From: Oceanirhabdus seepicola
GTDB taxonomy: Bacteria; Bacillota; Clostridia; Clostridiales; Clostridiaceae
Direction of reading: 5' to 3'
Assembly: GCF_023684385.1 (NCBI RefSeq)
Contig: NZ_JAGSOJ010000007.1
Location: forward strand, 144,148-208,147
Length of the DNA: 64,000 nt
A program made the position numbers and the translations under genes. This document shows, piece by piece, positions 9,248-44,421 of the stretch (position 1 is the stretch's first letter; every line of letters begins with the position of its first letter). Under the pieces are notes generated by a model. It did no database searches, was not told the origin of the DNA, and worked only from the letters and a program-made list of their open reading frames with translations.

Positions 9248-10324
9248 ATGGCTAGGTATATAAGGACAAGAATAATATGGATATTTGTATTGCTGTTTAC
9301 CATCTTATCATTAAACTTTATTTTGGTGAAGTTAGCGCCTGCTTATCCACCTACCACAAAGGAAGCGAAGCGCATGTACTTTGACAAGCAGGTTTCTGAT
9401 GGATATATGGAATTTAGATTGATTGATAATCCTCAAGAGATGAAAGAAATTAGAAAAAAGATGAAAACAGGAGAAACAATTAGATGTTCTTTTTATGAAG
9501 ATAAGGGAGATTTTATTCGAGCTTTTGAACCAATTCCAATAATTAAACAGTATTTCTCATGGGTAAAAAATATTGTAACAAAATGGGATTGGGGACTTTC
9601 TACTAAATTAGAAGCAGGTAGACCCGCATTTGATTTAATAAAAGAACGAATACCTACAACTATGACCATAAATATTATAGCGTTAATTTTCTATATTCCT
9701 ATAGGTCTAACACTGGGTATTATTGCAGCATTAAAAAAGAACAAATCTGCAGATAATGTTATTTCAGTCGCCGTAATGATTATGTATTCAATACCTGGTT
9801 TTGTTATTATGATCATGCTTGTTATGATATTTGGATACAATTTAGAGTGGGTACCATCAATATTTCCTGCAAAAGATGCAGATATGGCAGTTAGAATTCG
9901 TGGAATGATTTTGCCAGTATTAGCCATGACATTTGGACCAGTGGCAGGGTTAACAAGGCTAACTAGGGCTGAACTCACAGAGGTGTTGACTTCAGAATTC
10001 TTACTATTAGCTAGAACCAAAGGCTTAACTAGAAGACAAGCTGTCGTTAGACACGCTATGCGAAATTCCATGGTTCCCTTAGTGCCAAGTATTATATTTT
10101 CTTTTGTTGGAATATTATCAGGGTCGGTTATAATAGAAATGATTTATTCTATACCTGGTACAGGTCAAGTAGCTATAAGAGCGCTCACTAAAAATGCGTA
10201 TGATTATAACGTTATGTTGTGTTCCACTGCGTTTTATGCTACGATTTCACTATTTGCAATATTAATAGTTGATATTACATATGGAGTAATTGATCCAAGA
10301 ATTCGAATGGGAGGTAAAAAATGA
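9248..10324 (+). CDS. ABC transporter permease (OppB-like)
   Basis: The product is a multi-TM protein with an N-terminal TM and 'binding-protein-dependent' permease architecture. The ATG at 9248 follows 'GGAAAGGAAAG'. Confidence 0.8.
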   Translation: MARYIRTRIIWIFVLLFTILSLNFILVKLAPAYPPTTKEAKRMYFDKQVSDGYMEFRLIDNPQEMKEIRKKMKTGETIRCSFYEDKGDFIRAFEPIPIIKQYFSWVKNIVTKWDWGLSTKLEAGRPAFDLIKERIPTTMTINIIALIFYIPIGLTLGIIAALKKNKSADNVISVAVMIMYSIPGFVIMIMLVMIFGYNLEWVPSIFPAKDADMAVRIRGMILPVLAMTFGPVAGLTRLTRAELTEVLTSEFLLLARTKGLTRRQAVVRHAMRNSMVPLVPSIIFSFVGILSGSVIIEMIYSIPGTGQVAIRALTKNAYDYNVMLCSTAFYATISLFAILIVDITYGVIDPRIRMGGKK

Positions 10325-12219
10325 TGAATAATGTTAAAGACATTGTAAAACAAGATATCCCTAAAAATCAATTTGAATTTGTACAAAAGGGTCAAAAACT
10401 TTACGATCAGAAAATTCAAGGTAAGTCAATAAGCTACATGCAGGATGTTTGGATGAGATTCAAAAAAAATAGAGCAAACGTAACTGCATCAATAATTTTA
10501 TTAGTTTTAATACTATGCTCAATCTTTATGCCGGGATTATCAGGCAAAAATTATGAAAAGCTTGATGAAAAACTTTCTTTTTTACCTCCAAGAGTACCTT
10601 TCTTAGAGAAATTTGGAGTTATGGACGGTACTATATCTATAAAAGATAAGCCTATTGATTTAACAAAAATGGATGAAGAAACAGGATTGTATTTACCTTT
10701 GAATTATAACGAAAAAGCAATAGTTATGAAAACTCTTACTAATACACGTGTAGAAAGTTCAGAAAAATCTGAGTATGTTTTAAATGGACAATCTGTACTA
10801 AGGTTGGATTATGACTCCTCATCAATTACTGTTGAGTCTAATGAGTTTTATAATTTAGTTAAGGCTAATAATCCTAATATTGAAATTGATGTGTATGAGT
10901 TAGACAGTAGTTCTAATGGAAAAATAGAGGTTCTGTTACAATCAGATTTTGGTGGAGATTATACAGTTATTGACACTATAACAGAAACCGGTAAACACAG
11001 GGTTAAATTATTTGAGTTAAATCCAGATTTGTATGCTGATGTTGTATCTAAACTTCAACTACGCTATAGTTCAGATAATAAAGGGTCTTATGCTGCAGTC
11101 ACCAGCGTATCATTATTTGATGATAGTAGTAAAGAACCTGTTTTATTTCATGAAGGATATAATTTATGTAGTTATAAAGTAGTTGATGGAAAAGGTTCGT
11201 ATCAGAGACAAAATGGGGAGATGATCATTGCATCTTTTAAATACAATAAGTATATAGATGCATTTGATTTAACACATGAAACGGCTTTCTCAGCAAGTAA
11301 ATATGACAAACTATTAGCAGAGTGGGGCGACAAGGTAGAGAAGATTCCTAACCCTGATAATCCTGATGGATGGTTTTTTAGTGAAGGTTTTCCAATTCGT
11401 GAGGTTGTAAGAAAGAATGATACAGTTGAAGTGGATGGGGAAAAATATTCTTCATACGAGGTCTATCTTGATTATGCTGCATACTTAGGATATGATGAGT
11501 TACCATACTATTTGTTTGGAACGTCTCAAGCAGGTAGAGATTTATTCTCATTAGTTTGGGTAGGTTTGAGAACATCATTGTATATAGGTTTAGTTGTTAC
11601 CTTGATAAATGTAAGTATTGGAATTGTGTATGGTGCTATTTCTGGATATTATGGCGGAACTGTGGATTTGTTAATGCAGCGTTTTGCAGAGCTTATGGGT
11701 AGACTCCCATGGTTAGTTGTTTTGTCTATAATGGTTGCTTTGTTTGATCCAGGAATTAAAACATTAATATTAACTCTGGTGATAAATGGTTGGATAGCAA
11801 CGGCAAGTGTAACCAGAATGCAGTTTTATAGATATAAAGGACGAGAATATGTTCTTGCATCCAAGACAATGGGAGCTAAAGATCGACGCTTAATATTTAG
11901 GCATATTTTACCTAATGGTATTGGGACAATCATTACATCAAGTGTACTTTCAATACCGGCAGTAATTTTTTTAGAGGCTTCTCTCTCATACTTAGGATTT
12001 GGTATTGGGCATGGACAATCGTTCAACATCTTAGGAATGACTTTTTCAGGTGTATCAATAGGTGTATTGTTAGCTGATGCAAGAAATTTCTTGTCTACCT
12101 ATCCATATTTGACAGTATACCCTTGCGTAATAGTTTCGATATTAATGATTACATTTAATATGTTTGGTAATGCATTGAGAGATGCATTTAACCCATCACT
12201 GAGAGGGGTTGAAGATTAA
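10321..12219 (+). CDS. ABC transporter permease (OppC-like) with a roughly 330-aa N-terminal extracytoplasmic extension
   Basis: One N-terminal TM helix is followed by a long hydrophilic domain. A C-terminal permease core follows ('..LVWVGLRTSLYIGL..', EAA-like loop). The start overlaps the upstream stop (ATGA). Confidence 0.8.
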   Translation: MMNNVKDIVKQDIPKNQFEFVQKGQKLYDQKIQGKSISYMQDVWMRFKKNRANVTASIILLVLILCSIFMPGLSGKNYEKLDEKLSFLPPRVPFLEKFGVMDGTISIKDKPIDLTKMDEETGLYLPLNYNEKAIVMKTLTNTRVESSEKSEYVLNGQSVLRLDYDSSSITVESNEFYNLVKANNPNIEIDVYELDSSSNGKIEVLLQSDFGGDYTVIDTITETGKHRVKLFELNPDLYADVVSKLQLRYSSDNKGSYAAVTSVSLFDDSSKEPVLFHEGYNLCSYKVVDGKGSYQRQNGEMIIASFKYNKYIDAFDLTHETAFSASKYDKLLAEWGDKVEKIPNPDNPDGWFFSEGFPIREVVRKNDTVEVDGEKYSSYEVYLDYAAYLGYDELPYYLFGTSQAGRDLFSLVWVGLRTSLYIGLVVTLINVSIGIVYGAISGYYGGTVDLLMQRFAELMGRLPWLVVLSIMVALFDPGIKTLILTLVINGWIATASVTRMQFYRYKGREYVLASKTMGAKDRRLIFRHILPNGIGTIITSSVLSIPAVIFLEASLSYLGFGIGHGQSFNILGMTFSGVSIGVLLADARNFLSTYPYLTVYPCVIVSILMITFNMFGNALRDAFNPSLRGVED

Positions 12220-15262: not shown

Positions 15263-15970
15263 CATTGAAGCAGCTAACGATTCAATTATTACAATAGGAG
15301 CAATAGAATGATATATATAATAAGAATGGTAAAATAATTGATAACACTCTTTGATTATGTCAATATATAATAATTCAAAGAATAAAGTATTTAATAAAGA
15401 TATTTAAAAAGCAGTCTCAACATGAAAAGATATTTAATCGTAAGGAATTTAAATTTAGCAGTGGCAATAACATGTTTATTAGAAAGTAGACATGCTATTG
15501 CCACTGCCATGAGATATACAATACTTTGGAATAGTTTTAAGGATGTGAGGAACGAACATGGTTTAAGATAGTCCAAAGTTTCCATATAGAAATGGTGTCT
15601 TAAGGGGAGAGATAACTCTTCTTTTAAGAGGGGGGAAGGGGGGGGAGAAACTTATTGTTGTCAAATGAATAAATGGGGAATTTGATTTATTTGTAATATA
15701 CAATAAAAATTTAAATTATGATAACAGTAGGTTAAATAATGTTGCTTTAAAGGATAATAAAATAAAATCTTTGGAAAAGTTCAAGTGCTGATAAATAATA
15801 GAGTCTTTAGAAAGATAAATAAATATCACAATCTTATGAGAATAGTGAGCAGCTCTTGAGTTTGTCCAAAGCGACCATATAGAGAAATTGATTGGGAAGA
15901 TTAAAATCTTATAAGGGTTAAGGTTTTGTTGTCTTAGATTTATAGAAAATATATAAATATATAAGCTTCT

Positions 15971-16669
15971 TAATCAACTTCAGATAAAAGTCTATTGTAT
16001 AGAAGTATACTATTTGTAATCTTTAGAAGTTCCTTATCAAGTATGTCATTTCCTTTTAAATCACATATCATCTTGAACTTTTCAATAGAGCTTTTGGTTA
16101 TGGGCCCTATTATCCCATCAACAATAAGAGGTTTATTTTCATAAGCTAATATCCCAAGTGAATTTAAGTTCTCCTGGAGTTTATTAATTAGTTCATTGTT
16201 ACTTTTAGTAATCTTACTTTTAATTTAATCATATTTATATAGCTCATTCTCCTCAATTATATATAAGTTTATTAGGATAATCAGGGTCAGTGCAATATCC
16301 ACAAGTATAAAGATTATGACAGCCTTCATAATAGTCTTTTGAGTTAATAACAGGTATATATCTAGATGCTTTAGATAGAAGCTCAGCATAATCATCAAAA
16401 CTATCTTCATAGCTGTTATACTTTCTAAATAAGCACATCATAGGAGTTTTAACTCCATTTATCCATTCATAAGTTTGAAGTTCTTCATATTCAAAACCAG
16501 ATTTTCTAGTCCTTTTAATACCAAATAGATTATTCCCTTTACAGTATTTTAGCCATCCAGTTTCTAGTATTACTTGAGCGATAGTTACTGATGGCAAAAG
16601 TGAATATTTTTCGTCAATCTTTTTTGCATAAGGTAATAATAAAGAAATGACCTTTGACTTGAAACACAT
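15971..16669 (-). pseudogene. Endolysin-like cell-wall hydrolase: N-terminal glucosaminidase domain plus C-terminal PG_binding_1 domain, disrupted by a frameshift
   Basis: The glucosaminidase ORF runs 16253-16669 ('AQVILETGWLKYCKGNNLFGIK', 'YCTDPDYPNKLI'). It has no signal peptide and a 'GGAGGTG' RBS. The peptidoglycan-binding repeat ('LQENLNSLGIL..IVDGIIGPITKSSIEKFK') continues at 15971-16227 in a different frame with no start codon. Confidence 0.65.
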
Positions 16670-16885
16670 TTTATCACCTCCTTCAATATGAATATATGCA
16701 GTAAGTTATTTGGTTTGTAATTCTCATTAAAACTATCTCCTAGTATGAAGTTTTTTTTATAAGTCTATAAATATTTTAGTAGCAATAAAACTACAACATT
16801 TATAAACTCAATATGTTAAAATATAGTATATGTAAAAAAATAGGAATAAGGAATTTTTATAGGAGAGAAAAAAGGGGGGGAGTTC

Positions 16886-17506
16886 ATGCCTATTAAAGAA
16901 ACAAAGATAAGATTATTTTCAAGTGAATTTGAAGAAATGATTAATAAAAGGCAGGTTTCTTCAGATACTGTTTTCATAGATAAAAAAATATGGAATGAGT
17001 ATGGAAAAACCTATAGTATTATGGTTACTGATTTAAGCGGATTTACTAGTAATTCCATTGAGAGAGGAATTTTGAATTTTATTTCATTAATATATGAAGC
17101 TATGATTTTAACAGAGGCTATTGTAGAAGAAAACAATGGAGAGATTTTAAAAACAATTGGGGATACATTTGTAATTCTTTTTCCAAATCCTAAGGATTCA
17201 GTAAAGTGTGCTATAGAAATTCAAAATGCTTTGAGGGTAAGTAATAAAATAAAAGCTGAAAGTTTAAAGCTGCACATGAGTGTAGGTATTGGATATGGAC
17301 AAGTCTTAAAAGTAAGTAATAATGATATATTCGGTGTAGAGCTTAATATAGCTAGTAAACTTGGAGAAGATATAGGAATACCTAATGAAATTTTAATTTC
17401 AGAAGAGGTTAGGAATTATATAAATGAATACGAACTTCTATATAACTATGAATTAATTACCACAGAATATAATATTGGAAAAGTTTATAAATTAAAGTTT
17501 AAGTAA
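16886..17506 (+). CDS. Minimal class III nucleotidyl cyclase (adenylate/guanylate-cyclase fold, 206 aa)
   Basis: The catalytic motifs are 'VTDLSGFT' (metal-binding Asp), 'KTIGDTFVILF', 'VGIGYGQV' and 'GVELNIASKLGE'. A G7 tract forms the RBS. Confidence 0.8.
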   Translation: MPIKETKIRLFSSEFEEMINKRQVSSDTVFIDKKIWNEYGKTYSIMVTDLSGFTSNSIERGILNFISLIYEAMILTEAIVEENNGEILKTIGDTFVILFPNPKDSVKCAIEIQNALRVSNKIKAESLKLHMSVGIGYGQVLKVSNNDIFGVELNIASKLGEDIGIPNEILISEEVRNYINEYELLYNYELITTEYNIGKVYKLKFK

Positions 17507-17628
17507 CATAGGAAAAAAGAGAATAATATAAGATAAATAATAACCATAACTATGAATACTGCTGTTGATAATAAAGTCCTTGTAAATGACTTTTAAATTG
17601 GTAAAGTGACAAAATTAATTCTATTGTA

Positions 17629-17820
17629 AACCAAAATGATATTGTACTTATAGCTGGTAGTTTGCCAAATGGAGTTCCAAAAGATTTATACTATAAATTG
17701 ATACTAGAATGTAAAGAAAAGTGTGCTGAAGTTATACTTGATGCGAGATGAGAACAGATGAGATTAGCTTTAAAGGGTAAGCCTATGATAAACCAATCAT
17801 TGGACTTCAAATAAAGTAAC
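17629..17820 (+). pseudogene. PfkB-family sugar kinase remnant (1-phosphofructokinase / tagatose-6-P kinase-like)
   Basis: The fragment 'NDIVLIAGSLPNGVPKDLYYKLILECKEKCAEVILDAR' is followed by an in-frame TGA and then 'EQMRLALKGKPMINQSLDFK'. It has no start and an internal stop. Confidence 0.55.
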
Positions 17821-17869
17821 AGATAAAAGCTATTTAGCTAAAGTGTAAAGGAATAGAGGGGATGTTCTT

Positions 17870-18695
17870 ACAAGTCTTAGTTATAAATTAAAGGAATTAC
17901 CAAATGATTGGTTTAGATTAATAAAGATAAGAGAAATTATGGATAAAAAAGAAGAACTATCAGATAAGAGAGAATTAAAAAGTGAGAAATTAAATATATT
18001 AGAATGTGCATTAGAGGATTATAGAAAAGCATCTGAAATATTATTTAAATAGATTAGAAGAGGAATTAAAAGACTATCAAATAGCAATAGAAATAAGAGA
18101 AAGATTAGATAAAGAAGGAAAGCTCCCAGATAAAAATTATTTAGTTCAAGTGTACTATAATAGGGTCTTTGTACTTTTAAGGAAAAATCAATATAATGAA
18201 GTTTTAGAAGAAGCATTAAAAGGACTAACTATTTATGTTGATAATCTTCATAATGGAAGGTTTTTATATAATATTATAGTTACTTTAATGCATATGGTAA
18301 CAATGATTTCTAATAAACAAAAATGTTTAGAGAGGTATATTCCATTAGTTGTATCTTGTTTTAAAAGTATTAAAAATAAAGAAGTTACAGAGAAATCTCA
18401 AAAGATGCTAGAAGAAATTGCCTTTGTAATTAATGAAAGAATGGAAAAGGAAAATAAGAAAGATGTACAAGAGTTAATCAGTAGAATTAAAGAGATTTCA
18501 ATAAAAAGACAAGATGATACTAGTGATGAGTTTTTGTTAGCGGATATAATGGAGATTGAAGGTAGTCTTTATGGTTATTACTTTTCTAAGGCTCAGAAGG
18601 AGTTACTTGTATTAAGAATTGTAATATCACAAAATAATGTAAAGGTAGAATTTATTGAAGATGTTAAAGAAATTGAAAGCTATAGAGGAATATAG
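17870..18695 (+). pseudogene. Remnant of a TPR/helical-repeat transcriptional regulator (Rgg/RNPP-like C-terminal domain), frameshifted
   Basis: The ORF at 18150-18695 continues upstream in-frame as '..EEELKDYQIAIEIRERLDKEGKLPDKNYLVQVYYNRV..' with no start. Further upstream (..ECALEDYRKASEILFK*) the sequence continues in another frame. No HTH domain is present. Confidence 0.4.
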
Positions 18696-18811
18696 GAAAA
18701 AAGGGAACACAAAAAAATCGTAAAATGGTAAAAAAGTCTTAAATATTGATAATAGTTATGATTTCATATACGAGTTAATTAAAAGAATATGAAATTTGAA
18801 AGGAGAAGAGA

Positions 18812-21427
18812 ATGAAAAACGTACAATTTAAATTTATTGGACAAGGATCCACTGTTAGTAGTGAGTCAAAATCAGATATCTTAAAACCAAAGAGCAATAG
18901 AATATTCTTAGATGTAGGGAATGCCTTAGATTATAAAAATATAATTATTGATAATCATCAAGAATACTCTAAGTACGATAGTAATAAAGAGAGACCTATT
19001 AGTGTAGCAAGTATTTGTTACAATGAAAAAGACGATATAGAAGAATATCTTCAAAGAATAGAAGAGGACGAAGTTGAAATTGTACTTCATAGCGAACCAG
19101 ATATTGATTGTATTGTTTCTGCCTTCATTATTAGTAAGTACCTAAATAATGAAAAGTTACATAAGGATATGTCAATCATAGTAGATTGTGTTGAACAAAT
19201 TGATTCCGGAAGAATGGAATATAAAAACAATGAAATAATTAATCCTTGTTTCATACCATATGCACTAGATGAGGTTCTTAAAAGACAGAATAATCAAAAA
19301 AATAAATATGAAGAGAAAAAAGCTCAAGAGGCGAAAGAAAAAGGAGAAAGAACACATAAGTATGATATTAACGAAGAAGTAGTTCAAAAAGGTTTTAAGT
19401 TGATTGAAGTAATTCTAAAGTGCTTAAGTAAACTAGATAAAAAAGAAAAATTTTTAGATAATGTTGATATATCAAAAGAAACAGATCTTTTTGAAGAAGA
19501 ATTGATGCTTTTAAAGAAAGATTATGATCTTTACTTAGAAGAGAGAAAGAATGCTGAAATATGTTATGAAAGTAAAGTGAAGCTACCTATAAAAAATAGC
19601 TATGAGAATGAATTAAAAGAGGTGGATGCTTTATTTTGGAATGGAAAATCAAAGTGTATTCTTCATAAGTATTGGGCAAGACAAGATAAAACTGCTCCTT
19701 TAGGAGAAGGATTTATTTTTACATTTATTCTATCACAAATATTAAAAGGAGAGCATCAAGAAAAAAGAATTAAGCATAGGGACATTAATGTTAATAGAGT
19801 TATTATATCTGTAAATCCTAGAAGTGATGTTTCATTAAAAGGGTTAGGAGAGGCACTTGAAAAAGGAGAATGCTTTAAGGAGAAAGAATACTTTAAAAGT
19901 AGAGTAAGTTTATGGAGGAATAGGGGCAAGTCTAGGTTCCCAGAAGAATGGTGTGATAATGATGATCCATGGTATGATGGAAGAAATTTTGATTACACAA
20001 TAGTTGATTCTCCAAGAATAGGAAGTCTTATGAGTATTAGTGAAATAAAGCATATTGTTAATAATTTTACTGCTCCATTAGTAGAGGATTATTTAATAAA
20101 ATATGTTATACCATTCACAATTGATGAAAAGAAATATACTCAACTATGCAAAAAACTCAATAAGATTAAAGGAAATAATCTAGAAGAGGATGAAATTAAA
20201 GAATATTTTTGTAAACCAATACAAACATATTTATTTGAAAATTCCATTGAAGAAAGTAATTCTGGAAATCGTAGTTTTAACTGTAATAAATACTCTTATG
20301 ACATAAAAAGCTTGATAAGAGAAAATATGCTTAATGAAGTTAATGGAAAAACCCTGAATATATCAGATAATATCCTTAATATTATTGTGTTTAAATATGG
20401 AATAGGTTTCATTCATTTTGATATTGAAATTCAAAATGAAGAGAGCAATTTGCGTTTTGATGAGATTCTTAATATTAAGTATGATTTAAGCAATAATACT
20501 ATTGAAGAAAGAATATTCAATAAACTAATTGAAGGAATAAAAATAAAAGAATATGTTGTAGAGAAGAAAAAAGTAATGTTCTTCTCTGGCATTAGTATAA
20601 AATCGAATATATATTATGAAGAAAAGCATAAGAAAATGATATATAAGCAGATGAATTCTATGAACTGGAAAGGCGTTAATCATAATTCTAGATATATGAA
20701 TTATTTCATAGATAGAGATATTATTAAAGCAGACGAAAATACTTATTATGGTTTTAGTAAAAATGGAGGTGCACTACTTATTATTGACGATAATGATAAG
20801 TGTGAAAATTGTACAAGCGACCAGAATGGTGAATCAAATAAGTTGAAATGTATTAATGAATGTGGAAGAAATAAAAATAAAAAAAGTATTCATGATTATT
20901 TTGGAAAAAACGATTTTTATTTATTTTTAATAGCATTACAACAAAGATTGAGTTTACTAGCTTTTGACAATAAACTATCTGTATATGATAAAAAAAGCCA
21001 AAAAAGAGATATACAAAGATTAAGAGGGTTACTGGTTAATTTCACAACACAAGGGTGGTTCAGTGAGGTAACTGAAGATAAGATAGGAACTGTACTTTAT
21101 AAGAAATGGACAGAAATTTTTGAAAATACAGATTTATATAATGAGATTTATAGCCAGTTATCAGCAGTAGATGATTATTATAAAGCAAAAATGTCAAATC
21201 AATTAACACTTATATCAGCCATAACATTTCCTATGGTTTTTATAGGATCAATAGCAGGATTATATGATACAGGATATATGACAAGTGGTAGACAAGTATT
21301 TGAGTTAAAATGGATACCAGCTACAGAAGAGATGGTTGGAGCTTTAAGTATAGGTTGGGGATGTTTTTCTACATTCTCTCTTATGGTATTTTTAATTGTT
21401 ATAATATTTTTCTATCGGAAGAGATAA
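18812..21427 (+). CDS. 871-aa membrane protein with a divergent DHH-family-like N-terminal domain, a central helical region and a C-terminal CorA-like two-TM pore domain
   Basis: The N-terminal 'IVLHSEPDIDCIVSAFIISKYL' fits DHH motifs I/II (H..PDxD..S), and 'SIIVDCVEQ' fits the motif II Asp, but no canonical DHH triad follows. The C-terminus 'NQLTLISAITFPMVFIGSIAGLYDTGYM..ELKWIP..FFYRKR' aligns with the CorA TM1-GMN-TM2 region, with 'DTG' in place of GMN. The RBS is 'AAAGGAGAAGAG'. Confidence 0.65.
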   Translation: MKNVQFKFIGQGSTVSSESKSDILKPKSNRIFLDVGNALDYKNIIIDNHQEYSKYDSNKERPISVASICYNEKDDIEEYLQRIEEDEVEIVLHSEPDIDCIVSAFIISKYLNNEKLHKDMSIIVDCVEQIDSGRMEYKNNEIINPCFIPYALDEVLKRQNNQKNKYEEKKAQEAKEKGERTHKYDINEEVVQKGFKLIEVILKCLSKLDKKEKFLDNVDISKETDLFEEELMLLKKDYDLYLEERKNAEICYESKVKLPIKNSYENELKEVDALFWNGKSKCILHKYWARQDKTAPLGEGFIFTFILSQILKGEHQEKRIKHRDINVNRVIISVNPRSDVSLKGLGEALEKGECFKEKEYFKSRVSLWRNRGKSRFPEEWCDNDDPWYDGRNFDYTIVDSPRIGSLMSISEIKHIVNNFTAPLVEDYLIKYVIPFTIDEKKYTQLCKKLNKIKGNNLEEDEIKEYFCKPIQTYLFENSIEESNSGNRSFNCNKYSYDIKSLIRENMLNEVNGKTLNISDNILNIIVFKYGIGFIHFDIEIQNEESNLRFDEILNIKYDLSNNTIEERIFNKLIEGIKIKEYVVEKKKVMFFSGISIKSNIYYEEKHKKMIYKQMNSMNWKGVNHNSRYMNYFIDRDIIKADENTYYGFSKNGGALLIIDDNDKCENCTSDQNGESNKLKCINECGRNKNKKSIHDYFGKNDFYLFLIALQQRLSLLAFDNKLSVYDKKSQKRDIQRLRGLLVNFTTQGWFSEVTEDKIGTVLYKKWTEIFENTDLYNEIYSQLSAVDDYYKAKMSNQLTLISAITFPMVFIGSIAGLYDTGYMTSGRQVFELKWIPATEEMVGALSIGWGCFSTFSLMVFLIVIIFFYRKR

Positions 21428-21499: not shown

Positions 21500-22453
21500 C
21501 TATTTTAAAGAATTTAGTTCTGAGTTTGTCCAAGACTTAACATGATCAAGGAACAAGTTTAACTCTTGTGAGTCTTCGTCTAAAGGAGTATTTATATCAG
21601 CCACTGTATAAGTGTTCCACACCCTATCGAAAATTCCATCACTGCATACATCGTGCTGACATAAAACAAAAACCTTTAAACCAAGTGCATTAGCAAGTCC
21701 ACCTTCTAGATGTAGCCAACCAGAAGTATATTTGCGATGAACCTCTTCAGTTTCATGACTTGTCCCTTCTTTTTCTCTTAAAAAATAAGCGTGACTTTTT
21801 TCAAGTCCTAATATTACGGCACCTTTACATTGGCTCATTAATTCTCTGATTTTGCCTATAGGATCATGTTTATCATATACAGTAAGGTTAGCACGAACTA
21901 TTTTTATTCCAATAGACTCAAGCTTGTATATAATAGTTTGAATAAAATACTCTTGTTCAGGAGTGTGAGGAGTAATAGTGCTTAGAAATACAGGAACTTT
22001 ATTATCGGGTTTTTCTATTATTTGTTCATTGATTTTTTCATGTTTAGGTGTAGAGAAAGTTTTGTACCAATTTAAGATTACTTCTATCCCAGCAGTTATA
22101 AATTTAGCATCTTCAACCAAAGTCGTCTTTGGTAATCCAGTATGATGAACTAATCTATTTCTGGTGCTTCGAATATTATCACATCTTTGTATAATTTCAT
22201 TTGGAATGGAAGGGAAAGTAGCAGAATGATTTTTATTATATTGATTTAATCTTTGTATTGAACCATTAAGGTCATATGATTTACTATTTGAAATATCTAA
22301 ATCATATGATAGTTGGTTTAAAAATGATTCTATAAAAACAGCACCCCATATTGCACATGAGAAATATTCCTTATTTTCATGGCTTAACATACAATTTTTT
22401 AAATGATAAAAAGATGTTTCTTGTAAATAATCTCTATAATCATTTATGTTCAT
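21500..22453 (-). CDS. Two-domain protein: N-terminal DUF4145/HEPN-like domain plus C-terminal nucleoside 2-deoxyribosyltransferase-like (NDT/Rossmann-like) domain
   Basis: 'IRSTRNRLVHHTG' fits the DUF4145 signature R-x2-(G/R)-N-x3-H and the HEPN Rx4-6H motif. The C-terminal 'KVPVFLS..' and 'SGWLHLEGGLANALGLKVFVL' match the NDT-like motif (D/S-G-T-x-x-E-x-G-x-A-x-A-x-G-K-P-V). The RBS is 'AGGAGGA'. Confidence 0.55.
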   Translation of the reverse strand: MNINDYRDYLQETSFYHLKNCMLSHENKEYFSCAIWGAVFIESFLNQLSYDLDISNSKSYDLNGSIQRLNQYNKNHSATFPSIPNEIIQRCDNIRSTRNRLVHHTGLPKTTLVEDAKFITAGIEVILNWYKTFSTPKHEKINEQIIEKPDNKVPVFLSTITPHTPEQEYFIQTIIYKLESIGIKIVRANLTVYDKHDPIGKIRELMSQCKGAVILGLEKSHAYFLREKEGTSHETEEVHRKYTSGWLHLEGGLANALGLKVFVLCQHDVCSDGIFDRVWNTYTVADINTPLDEDSQELNLFLDHVKSWTNSELNSLK

Positions 22454-22820
22454 AAAGACTTATCCTCCTAGGTAATATTTTTATAAATGTACACAATATC
22501 ATGAGTACATTATATCATTTCAGTAAAGTATTTACTATAAATACAAGTTATGTGTTGTTGTGTTATTAACGAATGTAATGGAAATATATTTCATTGAAAT
22601 ACCAAAACAAAAAAATAGTGATGAAAAGATATGCTAGTAGCATGGACTGAATTCTTAAAAAATACTGAAAGTGAGAAAGTTAGAATCTTAGAAATGAGAA
22701 GTATAATAATAAAAGATAAAGTAATTGCTCTAAATAAAACTAAAGAAGAATTTAGAAAAATGAGGGGTTATTATTAAAATCTTAAGGAGATAGTTTTATA
22801 GCTACATTTAAGAATCTTAA

Positions 22821-22949
22821 TATTGTGTTAAAACAGCTATTCAAATTCTAAGGAGACTAAGATTATACAATATAAATAGAACTGAAAATAACAAGCTTTT
22901 ATTAGGTGTTGGTATTGGCTATGGTGATGTTATAAAGATCGGAAATTAG
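22821..22949 (+). pseudogene. Fragment of a second class III nucleotidyl cyclase, a paralog of the gene at 16886
   Basis: 'TAIQILRRLRLYNINRTENNKLLLGVGIGYGDVIKIGN*' aligns with the cyclase segment 'CAIEIQNALRVSNKIKAESLKLHMSVGIGYGQVLKVSNN'. It has no start and a premature stop. Confidence 0.55.
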
Positions 22950-23316
22950 ATATTTCTTATAAAGAAGCTGAGCATGTCACTGTTGGATTTAAAAAAGCAT
23001 ATAAACTAATTTACAAACTTAAATATGTATAATAATTTCAATGTTAAAAGGAAAATAAAGCAAAAAAGATAGTAAAGGAACTAAGTAAGTGAGCAATAAG
23101 TGAAACTGAAATTTTAATATATATTACTGAAATGGTGCATTAATTATAGGAAAAAGTAATAGTATTATTAATGGATATATAATTTTTAAAATTTATTAAT
23201 AAATTAAGTTAGTTTAAGAATACTAAAGAGGGTGATAAAAATTAATGATATAACTTTTAAATAATGTTTCTTAGGGCATGGACCTCTGTACATAATATAA
23301 ATGAAGATATATTTGT

Positions 23317-23650
23317 TTAGATATTGGTAATAAATTACATTATGGTGTTATAGTCATCATCATTTGAAAAGAGATTTTCGTGTACAACTTCATTAGATAC
23401 AATATCAAAGGATTTGATTCCTGTACCTAAGGGAAAAGTTTATAATATTATTATACATTTTTCTACAGACTTTGACTCACTAGCATCAATTTATTTGGTA
23501 ACGGTATACTTAATAAATGGTGCGTTTCCTAAATATACAGATGATTTAATAGAGTATGTTGAAATAATAGATTCAGGGAGAATGAGTATAGATAAGTTAA
23601 ATTTAAAATGTCCTGCGACAGTTGCTAATTTTTTAGAAATGTCAGTATAG
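23317..23650 (+). pseudogene. Fragment of a second DHH-like/CorA effector gene, a paralog of the 18812 N-terminus, frameshifted
   Basis: 'LDIGNKLHYGVIVIII*' matches 'LDVGNALDYKNIIID'. In the ORF at 23414-23650, 'IIIHFSTDFDSLASIYLVTVYL...IEYVEIIDSGRM' matches 'IVLHSEPDIDCIVSAFIISKYL...IVDCVEQIDSGRM'. The two pieces are in different frames. Confidence 0.6.
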
Positions 23651-24102
23651 AAGCAATAAGGATGAATTAGGCATGAAGCTTTATAATTATTGGGATAATA
23701 TCTTTCAAAACAATATTTTATATGAAGAGGTAACAGAGCGATTAGCTTCAGTGGATGAATATAAAAGAATTGAATGAGATAGAAAAGTGAATAAAATAAC
23801 AGCGATATTTATACCTATAATTTTGTTAGATTAAATATTTGCCATTGGGATATTTGAGGGAATAAATCCAATCAAGATAAGTTTGTTAATAACAGTAATA
23901 ATAACTCGTGTATAATACCACTTATAAGATTTTATTTAGACTTCGAAAAAAATAAATAATGAAATGGGATATAAAATAGAATTTAAATTAAAGAATTTTA
24001 CACTAAGGCTAAAATGTTATTAAACTGTTTTAGTCTTTCTTTATGTAAAAATAAAAAGTATAAGTAAAGCATAAAATTAAAATATCAATAAAGGAGCTGA
24101 TT

Positions 24103-26862
24103 ATGGATAATAATCCTAAGTTAAAAGAAACACTTAATGAATTATGTTTTTATTTACCATTAGAAGTGCAAGTAGATATTGAAGCAGCTTATGATCATTT
24201 GTTAAGGGATAGCAAAAATTATTGTGATGCTATTCAAAGATTAAGGAAAGCAGGGGAAGCGATTACTGCATTAATGGTTGAAGCTTTAGAATACAAGCCA
24301 GCAGTATCAAGAAGTGGAAGTCCAAAGACAATTGCTAGTCAACTAAAATACATAGATGATAAAGATTTCGTTTTTAGTATGGAGGTTGTAAGAGAGAAAG
24401 GTAATGATGTATCACATTCTTCACTAGGAAAAGATAAAAATAGATACAATTTAGAGATGGTATATGAAATATTTAAAAACTTCATTAATTGTGTGATTAT
24501 CTATATTACTAGAGGGTTACATGAAGATGATATTACAGAAAAATTAAATGAAATCGAAAAGAAACACAGTAATAATAAATATAATAATTTGAGTCTTGAG
24601 CAACCAGATGCTTTTGAATCCGAAGATAAAAATCAAGAGTTAGATACTAAAGGTGAAAAAGAAGAGCAAGTTAAATATGATGAGACAAATGATGAAAATA
24701 AAAATTCCAATATGAGTGAAGCTATTGAAAACATGAATTTTCAAAAGTTCCATATTAAAAACGAGAGTTTTAACAATAATGAAATCTTAAAAGATTACTC
24801 ATTTATTAAGTCAGCTAGAAGTTATGATGAAAGAAGAATATATCAAAAGAAAACTTACTTTGATATTGATGGTATTGAAATTGAAAAATCATATATTACT
24901 ACTGATGATATAGGGGAAATAATTTCAACATATGAGGAAGGAGATAAATATAAACTAATAAAGGGAGATTTTGATAGAAATAAAAATAAAAGATTAATTA
25001 TAATAGGTTCAGAAAAATCCCGTGGTAAAAGATCAACAGCAATTAAACTTCTCAGGGAATTAAAAAAGAAAAATGAAATTTTTTATTTTTCTCAAGTAGA
25101 TGAAAGTATAAAACTATACAATTTAAAAAAATATTTGAAAGATAAAAATATTTCCTACAACAAATCTTACATTATTAGAATGCATATAAGCGATCTGTTT
25201 GACTTAAATAAAAAGAATACCTTAGATGAAATTAATCTAGAGTTGAAAAAAAAGCATTCGTACATGGTAATTATTTCGCAGGATAGCTTTGATGACAAAA
25301 AATACAATGAGTATTATTATTCTTGGAATATGGATATAAACTTAGAAAAGATCATGAAAAATAAGATAAAATTCTTTGAGAAATCCTCTAAAAAGTATAA
25401 AAAGTATATTGAAAAATTGAAAGAGGCTGAAATATTTGAAGAACTAAAGCAAGTTCCAATAAGTCCTAGCCTTATAGCTGTTTATGTAAGAAATATTTTG
25501 GAAAAAGATCCACAGCATCCTGAATTTGCTTCACAAGCTAAAAAAGCATACCCTGCAAATTTAAAAGAAGAGGCTAGAAATACAATAGAGAATAATAAAA
25601 ATGATTTAGATGTGCTTTGTAAATTGTTATGCTTAAGTTTATTTCGCAAATTAAACAAGCCTCTATTTAATGACTTAAGTGAAAGTCTGATGCTAAACTT
25701 TAGTGAACTTGTTAATGAAGAAGAAAGACAAGAATTCATGAGTAAAGAGCGCTTGTTAAAGAATGACTCATATGTGGCAGAGAAAATTAATGCTAAAAAA
25801 GAAGTACAAATTATAAAAAGCAATTATGGAGATATTGAAGAAAGTTTCATTGAATTTGAAAATACTCAATTTTACGAAAAAGTATTAGAAAATCTTCTTG
25901 AGAATTATACAAGTATATACAAAGTAATTAGAGAATGGATATTAAAGAGATTTTTATATTTCAATCCAGTATTGGTTCAACTATTTATACCGAGTTTTAA
26001 ATACTTATTTATCAATGATAAGAAAACTATAATAAATACAATTTTAAGTCCATTGGTTAAGAAGAATTCGAAGTACGGTATAAAAAATATATGCACACTC
26101 ATAAATGCTTTAATAGAGATTGATAATGAGAATTTTATAATCGAATTTATTGAAAGAGTTAAGGGAATTAAAAAGCAAAGAGTTAAGAAAATAGTGTTGA
26201 ATTCGATTCCTAAAACACTTCATAAAAAATATCCTTTTAGGACCATTATGATTTTAAGACATTACATTGAGAAAGCATCCTCAATAAAAGAGATTGATGA
26301 ATGTTCATTATGTTTAAGTTTAATGATTGATCATAAAGTAATAAGAGATAATAGGTACATTGCATTAGAAGCTCTGGAAAATTGGTGTTTTGATTGTGAA
26401 GAGGATGAATTTTTTAGAACTAAATCTAAATATATATATCTAAATGCTCTGTACTACAACATGTATAAGAGTGATTATTGCTTTGTGATTGAATATTCGG
26501 AAAATATCGACTTATTAGAGGAGCAAATACTGCCACTATATGAATTGATTTTAAAGGATAAATTTATGCTCAAGCATTTCATTGAGTATATATTCAATGA
26601 AATAAAGTTTATTGGTGAAAAAAAACAAGATCTAGATGAAAAAGTTGATATTATTGAAAATATTCTAACCTTAGTACTAAAGGAAATTAAATTAAGTGAT
26701 AAAAGATATAGGAAATCATTTTTCCCTAAAATTAATTACTGGTTAAGAAAATACAGTAGGGAGTTTAAAGCAGAGAAAAATTTAATTGATATAGTTTTAG
26801 ATAATGTTATTGAAGATAATTATGAAAGGAGAGAACTTTTAAATGAAGGACTTATTGATTAG
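24103..26862 (+). CDS. 919-aa protein with an N-terminal DUF4145/HEPN-like domain, an acidic linker, a possible degenerate P-loop and a C-terminal alpha-helical repeat region
   Basis: 'VVREKGNDVSHSSLG' matches the DUF4145 signature (R-x-x-G-N-x-x-x-H). 'LIIIGSEKSRGKRSTAIKLL' is Walker-A-like but off by one residue (Gx5GK). The RBS is 'AAAGGAG'. The 3' end overlaps the next gene by 20 nt. Confidence 0.55.
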   Translation: MDNNPKLKETLNELCFYLPLEVQVDIEAAYDHLLRDSKNYCDAIQRLRKAGEAITALMVEALEYKPAVSRSGSPKTIASQLKYIDDKDFVFSMEVVREKGNDVSHSSLGKDKNRYNLEMVYEIFKNFINCVIIYITRGLHEDDITEKLNEIEKKHSNNKYNNLSLEQPDAFESEDKNQELDTKGEKEEQVKYDETNDENKNSNMSEAIENMNFQKFHIKNESFNNNEILKDYSFIKSARSYDERRIYQKKTYFDIDGIEIEKSYITTDDIGEIISTYEEGDKYKLIKGDFDRNKNKRLIIIGSEKSRGKRSTAIKLLRELKKKNEIFYFSQVDESIKLYNLKKYLKDKNISYNKSYIIRMHISDLFDLNKKNTLDEINLELKKKHSYMVIISQDSFDDKKYNEYYYSWNMDINLEKIMKNKIKFFEKSSKKYKKYIEKLKEAEIFEELKQVPISPSLIAVYVRNILEKDPQHPEFASQAKKAYPANLKEEARNTIENNKNDLDVLCKLLCLSLFRKLNKPLFNDLSESLMLNFSELVNEEERQEFMSKERLLKNDSYVAEKINAKKEVQIIKSNYGDIEESFIEFENTQFYEKVLENLLENYTSIYKVIREWILKRFLYFNPVLVQLFIPSFKYLFINDKKTIINTILSPLVKKNSKYGIKNICTLINALIEIDNENFIIEFIERVKGIKKQRVKKIVLNSIPKTLHKKYPFRTIMILRHYIEKASSIKEIDECSLCLSLMIDHKVIRDNRYIALEALENWCFDCEEDEFFRTKSKYIYLNALYYNMYKSDYCFVIEYSENIDLLEEQILPLYELILKDKFMLKHFIEYIFNEIKFIGEKKQDLDEKVDIIENILTLVLKEIKLSDKRYRKSFFPKINYWLRKYSREFKAEKNLIDIVLDNVIEDNYERRELLNEGLID

Positions 26863-29820: not shown

Positions 29821-30379
29821 ATCAAACATGTCGATACAAGTTCTTGCAGCTATGTTTTCATGATCAAGCTGAACAAATATTGAGGCAATATATTTAGGGT
29901 GATGACTGTTAATGTTGGTATTTGGATAACAGACGGAGTGGAGGTGGGTATCAGTATTACAATTGGAAGAATGTTAGCATCTACAGGGGAAGAGATATAG
30001 ACAAAGTGGGAGCACAGTGTTACAGGCATAATATCCACACAGTCTTAATTTGAATTGAAGGGAATTACATGTTTGAGGAATGCCAGAGATTTAAAAACAA
30101 CGAGATATAAGTTTGTGTAACTATTTAAAAATATTAAAACTCTATTTCTTATGCATTTGTATTTACCTAATTATTAATATATTTCCATGATTTTCATTCT
30201 TATTATTTACATTTTATCTTTAATATAATAACATATATTTATAATTAAATTATATAATAGTAATATTGGGTCAACATTCCACGAATATGGAGAATTCATA
30301 GTGACCTTGGGAGAAGTGAAAAAAATGGAGTGGAAGATAGTAGTACATAGCTGTGGTGACGGTGATAAAGGGGGTTGTT

Positions 30380-31024
30380 ATGACTGAGTTGTTAAAAAAT
30401 GCTTTTACAGGGATAAATATTATTCCAACTGTGTTGTTGTTAATAGTAGTTTTCTATTGGATCGGCGTTATTTTCGGGGCATTAGGTTTTGATTTTTTAG
30501 ATTTTGAGCTAGATGGTGCTGATAATTCAGGTCCATTCTATGCAGTATTATCATTTCTAAATTTAGCGGAATTACCTTTTATGTTGGTCTTTAGTATTTT
30601 AATTTTAAATTTTTGGATAATAGCTATGTTGATGTATTATCTACCAATAGTCTCTGGAGGTCCAGTAAATGCGGTATTGCTGCTACCTGCTATGGTGGTT
30701 AGTATGTTTATCACAAAGTATGAGACGGTTCCCTTAAAGGGAATTTTCAATGACAGCAGTGTGCAGGAGGAAAGAGGGCGTGAAGTAATTGAACATGAAT
30801 GCATACTTAAGTGCGATTTGGAAAATGGACGATTAGGACAAGCGGAGATAAAAAGAGATGGAGCTTCAATAGTGATAAATGTGAAGTCGGAATTCCATGA
30901 AGAGTCATTCCATAAAGATGAGGTTGCATTTGTTATCAGAAAAGACACTGATAAAAATATATATTATATAGTTAAAATGGAGGAGAAGAAAAATGAGTTA
31001 TTTGATTCAGGTACTATTAGTTAG
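30380..31024 (+). CDS. YqiJ/NfeD-like inner-membrane protein (DUF1449-like), partner of flotillin
   Basis: It has three or four TM helices and a C-terminal soluble beta-rich domain. The ATG at 30380 follows 'AAAGGGGG'. It lies immediately upstream of, and overlaps, the flotillin gene. Confidence 0.6.
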   Translation: MTELLKNAFTGINIIPTVLLLIVVFYWIGVIFGALGFDFLDFELDGADNSGPFYAVLSFLNLAELPFMLVFSILILNFWIIAMLMYYLPIVSGGPVNAVLLLPAMVVSMFITKYETVPLKGIFNDSSVQEERGREVIEHECILKCDLENGRLGQAEIKRDGASIVINVKSEFHEESFHKDEVAFVIRKDTDKNIYYIVKMEEKKNELFDSGTIS

Positions 31025-33008: not shown

Positions 33009-33095
33009 AAGAAAATAACAAGTCAGTATACTCGTATATTTGACTTGTTATTTTCTTCAACATGCCAAAACTACACGTGAATGAGGTAGATAAAG

Positions 33096-43704: not shown

Positions 43705-44421
43705 ATGAAAAATCATTTAGTAATATGTGTTTTGATATTATTAATGGGGGGACTTGGAGGAACAATAAATTATCTTCTTAATAATGAATCCAGAGAAAAA
43801 AATAAGTTTTTTAACGACAAATATTTTTGGTCATGTTTTATCATTGGAATTGGAGCTTCAATCCTTGTTCCATTATTTCTTAATACGATTTCAAGTAATC
43901 TTATTAATGAAAGTGCTAATGATCCAAATAAACTGTACATTATAGCCGGATTTTTTCTGCTAGCAGCAATTTATTCAAAAAAATTTATAAACTCAATATG
44001 GGACAGGGTTACTAAACAAGTTAATGAAAACACCCAACAAATTAGAGCTATTAATAAAGAAACACAACCAATTATTGAAAAAGAAACGGAGGATGATTTT
44101 CTAGGGAAAGAAATTTTCACAACAATATCAGATGAGAGACGGTTAGCTTATAGTAAAAACAATGTAAATGATGAATTTAAAATTCTTAATAATATTATCA
44201 ATGGTAATTATACATTTAGATCAATTAAGGGAATCAGTGAAGAAATAAATATAAATGAGAGTACTGTAATTAAAATAATTGAAGAGTTAATACGAAAAGA
44301 TTATATAGGTATTAGAGATGGGAAAGATGGGGTTAAATATTACATTACTCAAAAAGGAAGAAGATATTATAAATCAGAATTAATGAAAGTAATATCATGG
44401 AATGAGAATAAGAAGGATTAA
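43705..44421 (+). CDS. Hypothetical membrane protein with three TM helices and a C-terminal winged-helix-like region
   Basis: It has N-terminal hydrophobic segments and the RBS 'AAAGGGGGAG'. Confidence 0.45.
   Translation: MKNHLVICVLILLMGGLGGTINYLLNNESREKNKFFNDKYFWSCFIIGIGASILVPLFLNTISSNLINESANDPNKLYIIAGFFLLAAIYSKKFINSIWDRVTKQVNENTQQIRAINKETQPIIEKETEDDFLGKEIFTTISDERRLAYSKNNVNDEFKILNNIINGNYTFRSIKGISEEININESTVIKIIEELIRKDYIGIRDGKDGVKYYITQKGRRYYKSELMKVISWNENKKD

Follow-up and report, generated by a model that had tools for sequence, protein, structure and literature searches.

Does the 871-amino-acid (aa) membrane protein encoded in a 64-kb stretch of Oceanirhabdus seepicola DNA respond to the small class III nucleotidyl cyclase encoded upstream of it, or is it a stray member of an effector family that is driven by other means? 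The stretch, referred to below as the window, comes from a clostridial host low in guanine plus cytosine (GC) and holds 39 open reading frames (ORFs). An original prediction, made from the sequence alone, had proposed that the two genes form an undescribed Pycsar-like defense pair. Both ORFs that it named, with the motifs quoted for them, are present in the window:

16886..17506, plus strand: intact, stand-alone class III nucleotidyl cyclase of 206 aa (Pfam Guanylate_cyc)
18812-21427, plus strand: ORF of the 871-aa effector, a two-module protein
18812..20101, plus strand: N-terminal domain of the 871-aa protein (aa 1-430), a divergent DHH/DHHA1-fold, phosphoesterase-like "DPWYDG" domain
20102..21427, plus strand: C-terminal half of the 871-aa protein (aa 431-871), a CRISPR-type CorA-like module

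Taken as a whole, the evidence makes it probable that the product of the 871-aa gene is an orphaned NrN(DHH-fold)-CorA fusion effector, encoded in a decaying, low-GC island of defense type. Its mechanism would be ligand-gated, by analogy, and the adjacent cyclase is a hypothetical source of the ligand.

NCBI lists a "hypothetical protein" of O. seepicola with 100% identity to the 871-aa product, and an alignment of 27 full-length effector homologs, which share 22-53% identity, shows two modules. The C-terminal module matches the PADLOC "CorA-like" profile PDLC01043 over aa 689-846 (E=6.6e-21) as well as PDLC01174 (E=1.7e-12). Furthermore, when an AlphaFold2 model of the full-length protein (predicted local distance difference test, pLDDT, of 78.9) was searched with Foldseek, the CorA chains of T. 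maritima were returned first, with a probability of 0.99 over about 340 aligned columns. The similarity to CorA, which the original prediction had recognized in the last 80 residues, therefore spans the whole C-terminal half. This half consists of an alpha/beta cytoplasmic domain, long stalk helices and a membrane hairpin of two helices at approximately aa 797-819 and 845-870, and thus has a CorA-type fold that ends in a two-helix membrane hairpin. As had also been predicted, the GMN pore signature is absent and its position reads "GLYDTGYM". Together with the lack of any match to Pfam CorA (PF01544) at E<=1, this implies that the module is a divergent CorA of the CRISPR type and not a Mg2+ channel. 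No domain that binds a cyclic nucleoside monophosphate (cNMP) was found in the protein in Pfam at E<=1, and a sequence search of the PDB with the 871-aa protein returned only spurious kinesin matches.

Within the N-terminal module, residues D34, G36, D47, H49, H93, P96, D97, D99 and G133 and a "DPWYDG" block are invariant across the 27 sequences; the set D34, D47, H49, H93, D97 and D99 has the look of an active site. The Pfam DHH profile is matched below its threshold (18.2 bits against 28.1, E=0.0031) and over aa 89-126 only; a fold test on aa 1-430 returned the DHH/DHHA1 fold. A D-x-H triad at aa 47-49 reads DHH in many homologs and DNH in the 871-aa protein, with D47 and H49 invariant. Unlike in the canonical DHH order, this triad lies N-terminal to motif I (H93-x3-D97-x-D99); D131 is also present. 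The GGGH motif of DHHA1 was not identified in the aligned family, which has the invariant DPWYDG block instead. The original prediction had described DHH motifs without a canonical triad: the DHH-like assignment is borne out by the fold tests, the sub-threshold Pfam score aside, while the absence of a triad is not, given the DHH-type triad at aa 47-49. Catalytic competence of the domain is plausible from these residues. Of the Pfam profiles for Guanylate_cyc, CorA and DHH, only Guanylate_cyc was matched outright (47.6 bits), with no CorA match at E<=1 and the DHH score below its cut-off.

The assignment to a known class of effector comes from the homologs. Two scans of sequence collections and several look-ups yielded 118 loci (L numbers; P numbers denote protein matches), amounting to approximately 1.4 Mb, and among these are 37 ORFs that possess both the DHH-like domain and the CorA half, or 29 groups at 90% identity. 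Among all cluster representatives, the family profile matches 3,446 at E<=1e-3, 1,475 at 1e-10 and 457 at 1e-30, many of these matches consisting of the N-terminal DHH-like domain only. In one group of loci (L013/L053/L054) the gene order is Cmr6, Cas10, Cmr4, Cmr5, Cmr3, [homolog], Cas6, with PADLOC E-values down to 2e-141; the homolog between Cmr3 and Cas6 is full length, measures 900 aa and shares approximately 30% identity with the 871-aa protein. The CRISPR-embedded homolog from L054 also yields the same PADLOC CorA-like matches as the 871-aa protein, and in L056 a homolog is preceded by a Csm3/Cas7 fusion and followed by Cas6. NrN-CorA fusions are known from type III-B loci (Chi et al. 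2023, PMC10600005; Shmakov et al. 2018, bioRxiv 10.1101/270033). The presence of full-length homologs inside type III loci thus identifies the 871-aa protein as a known NrN-CorA fusion effector, orphaned here, and turns the likeness to the NrN and CorA proteins of type III CRISPR, noted in the original prediction, into more than an analogy. That prediction was also right that cas genes are absent: there are none among the 39 ORFs, and no repeat array was found in the window. In the plasmid and viral collections, no homologs of the effector were found.

A separate observation concerns the Cas10 of L013/L053/L054 (3117-13146), whose best match is to the PADLOC "Cas10c / CAS-III-C" models (E=2e-141). 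Type III-C Cas10 is usually described with a degenerate cyclase domain, and if this one is degenerate, its pairing with a signal-dependent effector of the CorA type is odd.

How such an effector might work can be proposed by analogy with the CorA and NrN proteins of CRISPR loci, as in B. fragilis (PMC10600005, PMC12255297). A nucleotide-derived ligand would bind the cytoplasmic part of the CorA-like half, whereupon the two-helix hairpin would open or disrupt the membrane and arrest or kill the infected cell; the fused, metal-dependent DHH-fold domain would hydrolyze the ligand, and the response would thereby be tuned or reset. In the type III systems, S-adenosylmethionine-AMP (SAM-AMP) made by Cas10 activates CorA and is degraded by NrN, and the CRISPR CorA effector is obligately associated with a signal-degrading enzyme, be it NrN, DEDD or a SAM-AMP lyase (PMC10600005). 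The 871-aa protein would, judging by its fold, bring such an enzyme with it in the DHH-fold domain fused at its N-terminus. The best local candidate for the source of the ligand is the adjacent 206-aa cyclase, as a hypothesis, other candidates being a Cas10 encoded elsewhere and a STAND or HEPN partner.

Several observations weigh against this reading of a functional, ligand-gated effector. Solitary copies of the gene are inserted among housekeeping genes in four loci (L008, L009, L011, L055), so that a self-contained sensor-effector, lacking a dedicated signal generator, is possible. Since there are many pseudogenes in the island, the system may be partly defunct. Finally, catalysis by the DHH-like domain is not assured, because the triad reads DNH here and the order of the motifs is non-canonical.

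The first alternative is the one originally proposed, in which the cyclase and the effector form a dedicated two-gene system of abortive infection. In its Pycsar-like version, infection would activate the cyclase, the product would open the CorA-type pore, and the DHH domain would degrade the signal; in a Panoptes-like variant, for which there is a precedent (PMC12657218), a constitutively made nucleotide would keep the pore shut until the counter-defenses of a phage deplete it. As the cyclase lacks a sensor domain, the Panoptes-like logic is as conceivable as the Pycsar-like one. The strongest local argument for a dedicated pair is a second, degraded pair that lies approximately 5 kb downstream of the intact one and in the same order, cyclase then effector, just as the original prediction had stated:

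22750..22949, plus strand: relic of a second small cyclase, covering positions 80-146 of the family hidden Markov model (HMM) and containing several stop codons (tblastn E=3e-6; hmmsearch E=1.6e-11)
23299..23906, plus strand: relic of a second DHH-CorA gene with approximately 600 internal codons deleted (found by hmmsearch in two pieces)

The two pieces of the relic effector are an N-terminal domain at 23366-23737 (E=1e-21) and a CorA C-terminus at 23658-23906 (E=3.5e-23), and by extrapolation a gap of only about 80 nt would separate the two relic genes. With P0011 the relic effector shares 48-51% identity, with the intact copy only about 32%; the relic cyclase stands at much the same distance from each of the family members compared (roughly 31-39% identity, apart from one shorter match of 47 residues at 47%). 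The two pairs are therefore deeply diverged and belong to different subclades, rather than stemming from a recent duplication. It further speaks for a dedicated pair that both intact genes keep full ORFs in an island filled with pseudogenes, and that fusions of class III cyclase domains with this same DHH-like domain recur elsewhere. Homologs in CRISPR loci, moreover, presumably respond to a product of Cas10, and Cas10 is a palm-domain enzyme related to the class III cyclases.

The cyclase itself is what the original prediction had taken it to be, an intact class III enzyme. Its product is 100% identical to the O. seepicola "adenylate/guanylate cyclase domain-containing protein" of NCBI; it matches Pfam Guanylate_cyc (PF00211) over aa 43-183 with 47.6 bits against a cut-off of 21.9 (E=1.9e-12), and among solved structures it comes closest to Ma1120, a minimal class III cyclase (E=7e-13). 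The metal-binding residues D49 and D93, as well as K89 (the lysine of "KTIGD") and N154, align with their counterparts in Ma1120. In place of the transition-state arginine, however, there is Lys158, which is invariant in the eight family members that were aligned, as is the motif around it, "N-x-A-S-K-L-G-E-D". An N-terminal "IDKKIW" segment is conserved and specific to this small-cyclase family (the window cyclase and P0070-P0188). From these features, the product of the family may be something other than cyclic AMP; among the small cyclases of approximately 205-210 aa, no characterized member was found.

The distribution of this cyclase family speaks against a dedicated pair. A search with the single sequence returned only seven relatives; with a profile the count rose to at least 6,566 clusters at E<=1e-10, nearly all of them stand-alone proteins of 203-215 aa, many on large chromosomal contigs. 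The organism names, given for a few of them, include Syntrophales, Spirochaetales, Thermodesulfobacteriota and Sericytochromatia. Genomic surroundings were read for five members, one of them the cyclase of L043 (see below), and the contexts were unrelated or of a housekeeping kind. Three shared a common synteny, with an opposite-strand protein of 161-180 aa, a protein of approximately 340-380 aa and, later, an NTP_transferase/DUF6564 gene, followed by Aminotran_5 on the two longer contigs; the closest homolog (46% identity) is followed by a GATase gene and then by a gene read as DusA-like. The best PADLOC PycC match of the 206-aa cyclase is partial in coverage (E=4e-7, 27.7 bits) and no better than generic class III similarity, and the cyclase matches in the plasmid and viral collections are likewise generic. 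One viral contig from IMG/VR (L119) encodes, at 9929-10393, a distant relative of 154 aa (28% identity, HMM E=3e-16), near which no homolog of the DHH-like domain or of the CorA half was found.

In the reciprocal survey, the iterated family HMM was run on the ORFs and six-frame translations of 117-118 loci. Apart from the window itself there are 28 non-redundant full-length loci, and in the flanks fetched for them, which extend to 10 kb at most, no family cyclase occurs; none lies beside the closest relatives of the effector (L001, L113, L114 and L115, 48-53% identity) or beside the closest relative of the relic (L117). Aside from the loci that the cyclase query had itself brought in, the sole match, which does lend the pair some support, came from a Myxococcales locus (L043), where a family cyclase lies 1.7 kb from a distant homolog of 723 aa that combines the DHH-like domain with a membrane hairpin. 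By a rough estimate that takes into account how common the cyclase family is, one chance adjacency of this sort among the approximately 1.4 Mb of loci would have a probability of about one in ten, which is counted against the pair.

Among full-length loci, the pairing of cyclase and effector is thus restricted to this genome, where it occurs as two tandem, diverged pairs, and 1.3 kb of pseudogene debris separates the intact genes. Of the original proposal, the domain assignments and the second local pair stand. The partnership with the cyclase is not established, in view of the 28 loci without it, the large family in unrelated contexts, the weak PycC match and an effector without a cNMP-binding domain; the unrelated contexts come close to what the proposal itself had named as grounds for giving it up. 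A dedicated pair of either kind is consequently regarded as possible, though on balance it is not expected.

The repeated cyclase fusions are part of a wider pattern, in that the DHH-like domain appears to be a mobile module. Domain fusions were surveyed in 38 representatives that carry only this part of the effector, with the following partners:

TIR, in 10 of the 38 representatives
Ser/Thr kinase, in 6 of the 38
class III cyclase, in 3 of the 38
HD-CE, in 2 of the 38
TCAD9, in 2 of the 38
NACHT plus TPR, in 2 of the 38

These fusions indicate that the domain travels with signaling and effector domains of the immune type; the notion that the CorA half was the promiscuous module proved wrong. 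In P0040 and P0044 a helical N-terminal region without a Pfam match precedes a cyclase domain at aa 365-505 and then the DHH-like domain. Because such fusions recur, they provide generic support for a link between nucleotide cyclases and the phosphoesterase-like domain; the fused cyclase domains lie outside the small-cyclase family of the window. On a different note, P0025 (974 aa) combines the DHH-like domain with most of the CorA cytoplasmic and stalk region and has a TIR domain, at aa 845-948, in place of the membrane hairpin, and this exchange of effectors on one scaffold suggests that the cytoplasmic part is the regulatory unit. The DHH-like domain also stands at the N-terminus of several very long proteins of approximately 1,316-1,420 aa (P0047, P0057, P0269, P0284-P0301), of which P0047 and P0057 end in several predicted transmembrane helices that would be a membrane module different from CorA.

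A Cas10-independent, cyclase-driven CorA system is possible, albeit at a rather low probability. In its fullest form, the Arg-to-Lys cyclase would make a cNMP or a SAM-AMP-like conjugate that gates the NrN-CorA-type pore in the manner of Pycsar or Panoptes, and the "DPWYDG" domain would be an undescribed and widely reused module for degrading or sensing signals, carried by CorA pores and by TIR, kinase, HD, NACHT and cyclase proteins in immune-type loci. This broad proposal is considered unlikely.

A second alternative, also on the unlikely side of possible, assigns the effector to other partners, namely a DUF4145/HEPN-like protein, a STAND-type nucleoside triphosphatase (NTPase) or both, in line with the majority of family loci outside CRISPR, and makes the cyclase a bystander at the edge of the island. 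The local candidates are:

21500..22453, minus strand: gene convergent with that of the 871-aa protein; its 317-aa product starts with a DUF4145/HEPN-like domain and is a candidate partner
24103..26862, plus strand: 919-aa protein directly 3' of the relic, a candidate P-loop NTPase with a DUF4145-like N-terminus

What most often adjoins the effector outside CRISPR loci is a large STAND NTPase (L015, L020, L022, L069/L071, L002, L012, L113, L114), which is the immediate neighbor of full-length homologs in at least seven non-redundant loci. A DUF4145 protein adjoins it in L001, L010 and L014, homologs of the one in L010 occurring also in L025 and L066, and a TPR protein of 715-736 aa does so in L002 and L010, with a homolog in the CRISPR locus L013/L054. 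The 317-aa protein and its homolog in a Verrucomicrobiae locus (L046) can be related to the DUF4145 neighbors of effector homologs by hhalign (probability 88%, E=3e-6), and in the alignment with these neighbors the 317-aa N-terminus shares an R-x4-H-type motif. The homolog in L046 (E=2e-32), which has a weak Pfam HEPN match of its own (E~1e-3), comes directly after genes for the DHH-like domain and beside a 1,577-aa STAND protein, and the DHH-like domain is itself fused to NACHT, TIR and kinase domains elsewhere. Nevertheless, none of the partner families occurs at every locus, the 317-aa and effector genes converge instead of running in the same direction, and the cyclase that precedes both copies of the effector is left unexplained. 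The case for the 919-aa protein is weak as well: it has only weak Pfam P-loop matches, an hhalign score to DUF4145 of E=1.4e-3 (probability 17%) and a weak similarity to L001_726 (E=0.017), such that it may be a P-loop NTPase and a candidate partner.

Two of these loci are also of note in their own right. In L046 (3431-12035), the 1,577-aa STAND NTPase, a fusion of a TCAD9 kinase-like and a DHH-like domain (split into 727 and 272 aa, possibly by a frameshift) and the homolog of the 317-aa protein form an arrangement that resembles the "ternary" conflict systems of PMC7159879. In L002 (=L003; 1837-22589), a stand-alone DHH-like-domain protein of 407 aa is encoded directly 5' of an 862-aa fusion, in the company of a Lon-like AAA protease, the 715-aa TPR protein, a 1,767-aa STAND NTPase and two dynamin-like GTPases; a Lon-like protease is also found 3' of the homolog in L117.

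A third alternative holds that the orphan effector answers in trans to a signal, for example SAM-AMP, from the Cas10 of a type III CRISPR system at some other place in the Oceanirhabdus genome. In other genomes the family does occur within type III loci, and the known ligand of CorA and NrN is SAM-AMP made by Cas10 (PMC10600005), but the 64-kb window has no cas gene, and many homologs lie on long contigs with no cas genes close by. This alternative is accordingly judged quite unlikely.

The two genes lie within some 15 kb of DNA (roughly 15.2-30 kb) with a GC content of 0.25-0.28, as compared with 0.32-0.35 in the flanks. This low-GC stretch is bordered on the left by an opp ABC-transporter operon and on the right by a helix-turn-helix gene, a Band_7 protein and a 1,645-aa DUF3686/AAA protein. 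No tRNA, CRISPR-like repeat array or cas gene was located in it, although it does contain several pseudogene fragments, among them:

16253-16669, minus strand: truncated glucosaminidase of 138 aa, part of the pseudogene debris in the island
17537..17800, plus strand: frameshifted pfkB pseudogene fragments (fructose-1-phosphate or tagatose-6-phosphate kinase), recognized by three-frame translation and by phmmer against FruK/LacC of the PDB (E~1e-4)
17864..18695, plus strand: frameshifted remnant of a helical ORF (the 181-aa ORF 18150-18695 and an upstream piece)

The latter two make up the 1.3 kb of debris between the intact cyclase and the 871-aa gene. The original prediction had named a pfkB fragment here, which the FruK/LacC matches bear out in spite of the lack of a Pfam match, and a remnant of a TPR regulator, a label that no profile confirmed, the helical remnant having no significant Pfam or PADLOC family. 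Neither piece of debris echoes the neighbors of the homologs: the pfkB fragments are not similar to the pfkB gene beside the effector in L009, and the helical remnant is not similar to the 715-736-aa TPR protein.

The reading that survives least well, in which the adjacency is a meaningless product of decay, left by the ancient block duplication of two unrelated neighbors, and the 871-aa gene codes for some ordinary membrane protein or one that is defunct, is very unlikely: the island is indeed filled with pseudogenes and a block duplication keeps gene order regardless of function, but the relic effector resembles P0011 more than it does its intact counterpart, the relic cyclase is as far from the intact cyclase as from the rest of the family, neither intact ORF is truncated and both retain the invariant family residues, and a protein with neither a Pfam CorA match nor GMN is not a housekeeping Mg2+ channel.

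Some further features of the window are recorded here. G-rich runs occur at 15620-15650, within the low-GC island. At 30353-38033, three genes in the same orientation, which encode a 223-aa protein, a Band_7/SPFH protein of 671 aa and the 1,645-aa protein with DUF3686, DUF7902 and AAA domains, resemble a defense-type module without having a PADLOC match; a Band_7 protein is also close to the effector homolog in L001. PADLOC "CARF" and "Csa3" matches fall on the C-terminal stretch of a 238-aa ORF (43705-44421) that was read as winged-helix DNA-binding and not as a cas gene, and the matches to "AbiLi" and "CARF3--CARF_TM" among the window ORFs were assigned to no ORF, neither being a cas gene.

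The orphan NrN-CorA effector, then, is the explanation that best accommodates the locus, and its interest lies in what it adds to a known class. To our knowledge, type III CRISPR is the only setting from which CorA-type effectors and SAM-AMP signaling have been described to date, as its accessories. The present survey adds that NrN-CorA fusions also occur widely away from CRISPR, where their neighbors are STAND NTPases, HEPN-like proteins and, in this instance, a class III cyclase. The CorA pore may thus serve as an immune effector of general use, open to control by several sensor systems, and the family offers concrete candidates for new ligands and for the unexplained requirement of CorA-mediated immunity for signal degradation. 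Should it be true that the local cyclase feeds the effector, this would be the first CRISPR-independent route to the activation of a CorA-type effector.

Comparison with known systems places the locus between several of them. With the canonical CorA Mg2+ channel of T. maritima, the 871-aa protein shares the overall fold of its C-terminal half (Foldseek probability 0.99) and a conserved F-P in the first transmembrane helix; unlike canonical CorA (PF01544), it has no Pfam match at E<=1, DTG in place of GMN, a long and variable loop and 430 extra N-terminal residues. The cyclase resembles Ma1120 (PDB 4wp8/4wp9) in being a single catalytic domain that keeps both metal-binding aspartates, the lysine of "K-x-x-GD" and the asparagine, and differs from it by the invariant lysine in place of the transition-state arginine and by the family-specific N-terminal "IDKKIW" segment.

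As in Pycsar, a small, sensor-less cyclase with weak PycC matches adjoins a putative membrane-spanning effector in a defense-type island. In contrast to Pycsar, the effector has no cNMP-binding domain, debris of 1.3 kb intervenes, the pairing is not kept among the homologs, and the cyclase comes from a very large family whose contexts, where read, are not defense-linked. Panoptes consists of a minimal CRISPR polymerase, mCpol, and a transmembrane effector that is held off by a constitutively made nucleotide (PMC12657218, PMC13577387). With it the locus would share a minimal, sensor-less, palm-type synthase paired with a membrane effector, and the logic of a CRISPR-derived effector outside CRISPR. 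Here, however, a class III cyclase takes the place of mCpol as the synthase, the effector is of the CorA type with a fused phosphoesterase, and any likeness in guarding would be by analogy. The mentions of "CorA" in a 2026 DAC/Panoptoo preprint proved to be false word matches.

The closest counterpart is the NrN-CorA fusion of type III CRISPR. The differences are that the window has no cas genes, that the neighbors are a class III cyclase and a HEPN-like protein in place of Cas10, and that the N-terminal domain is divergent, with a sub-threshold Pfam DHH score, DNH for DHH and the triad N-terminal to HxxxDxD. Conversely, the 871-aa protein shares with the type III-B and III-D fusions an N-terminal DHH-fold phosphoesterase and a divergent CorA-like module with a two-helix hairpin; it yields PADLOC matches to the CRISPR "CorA-like" profiles, and its full-length homologs are found inside type III loci.

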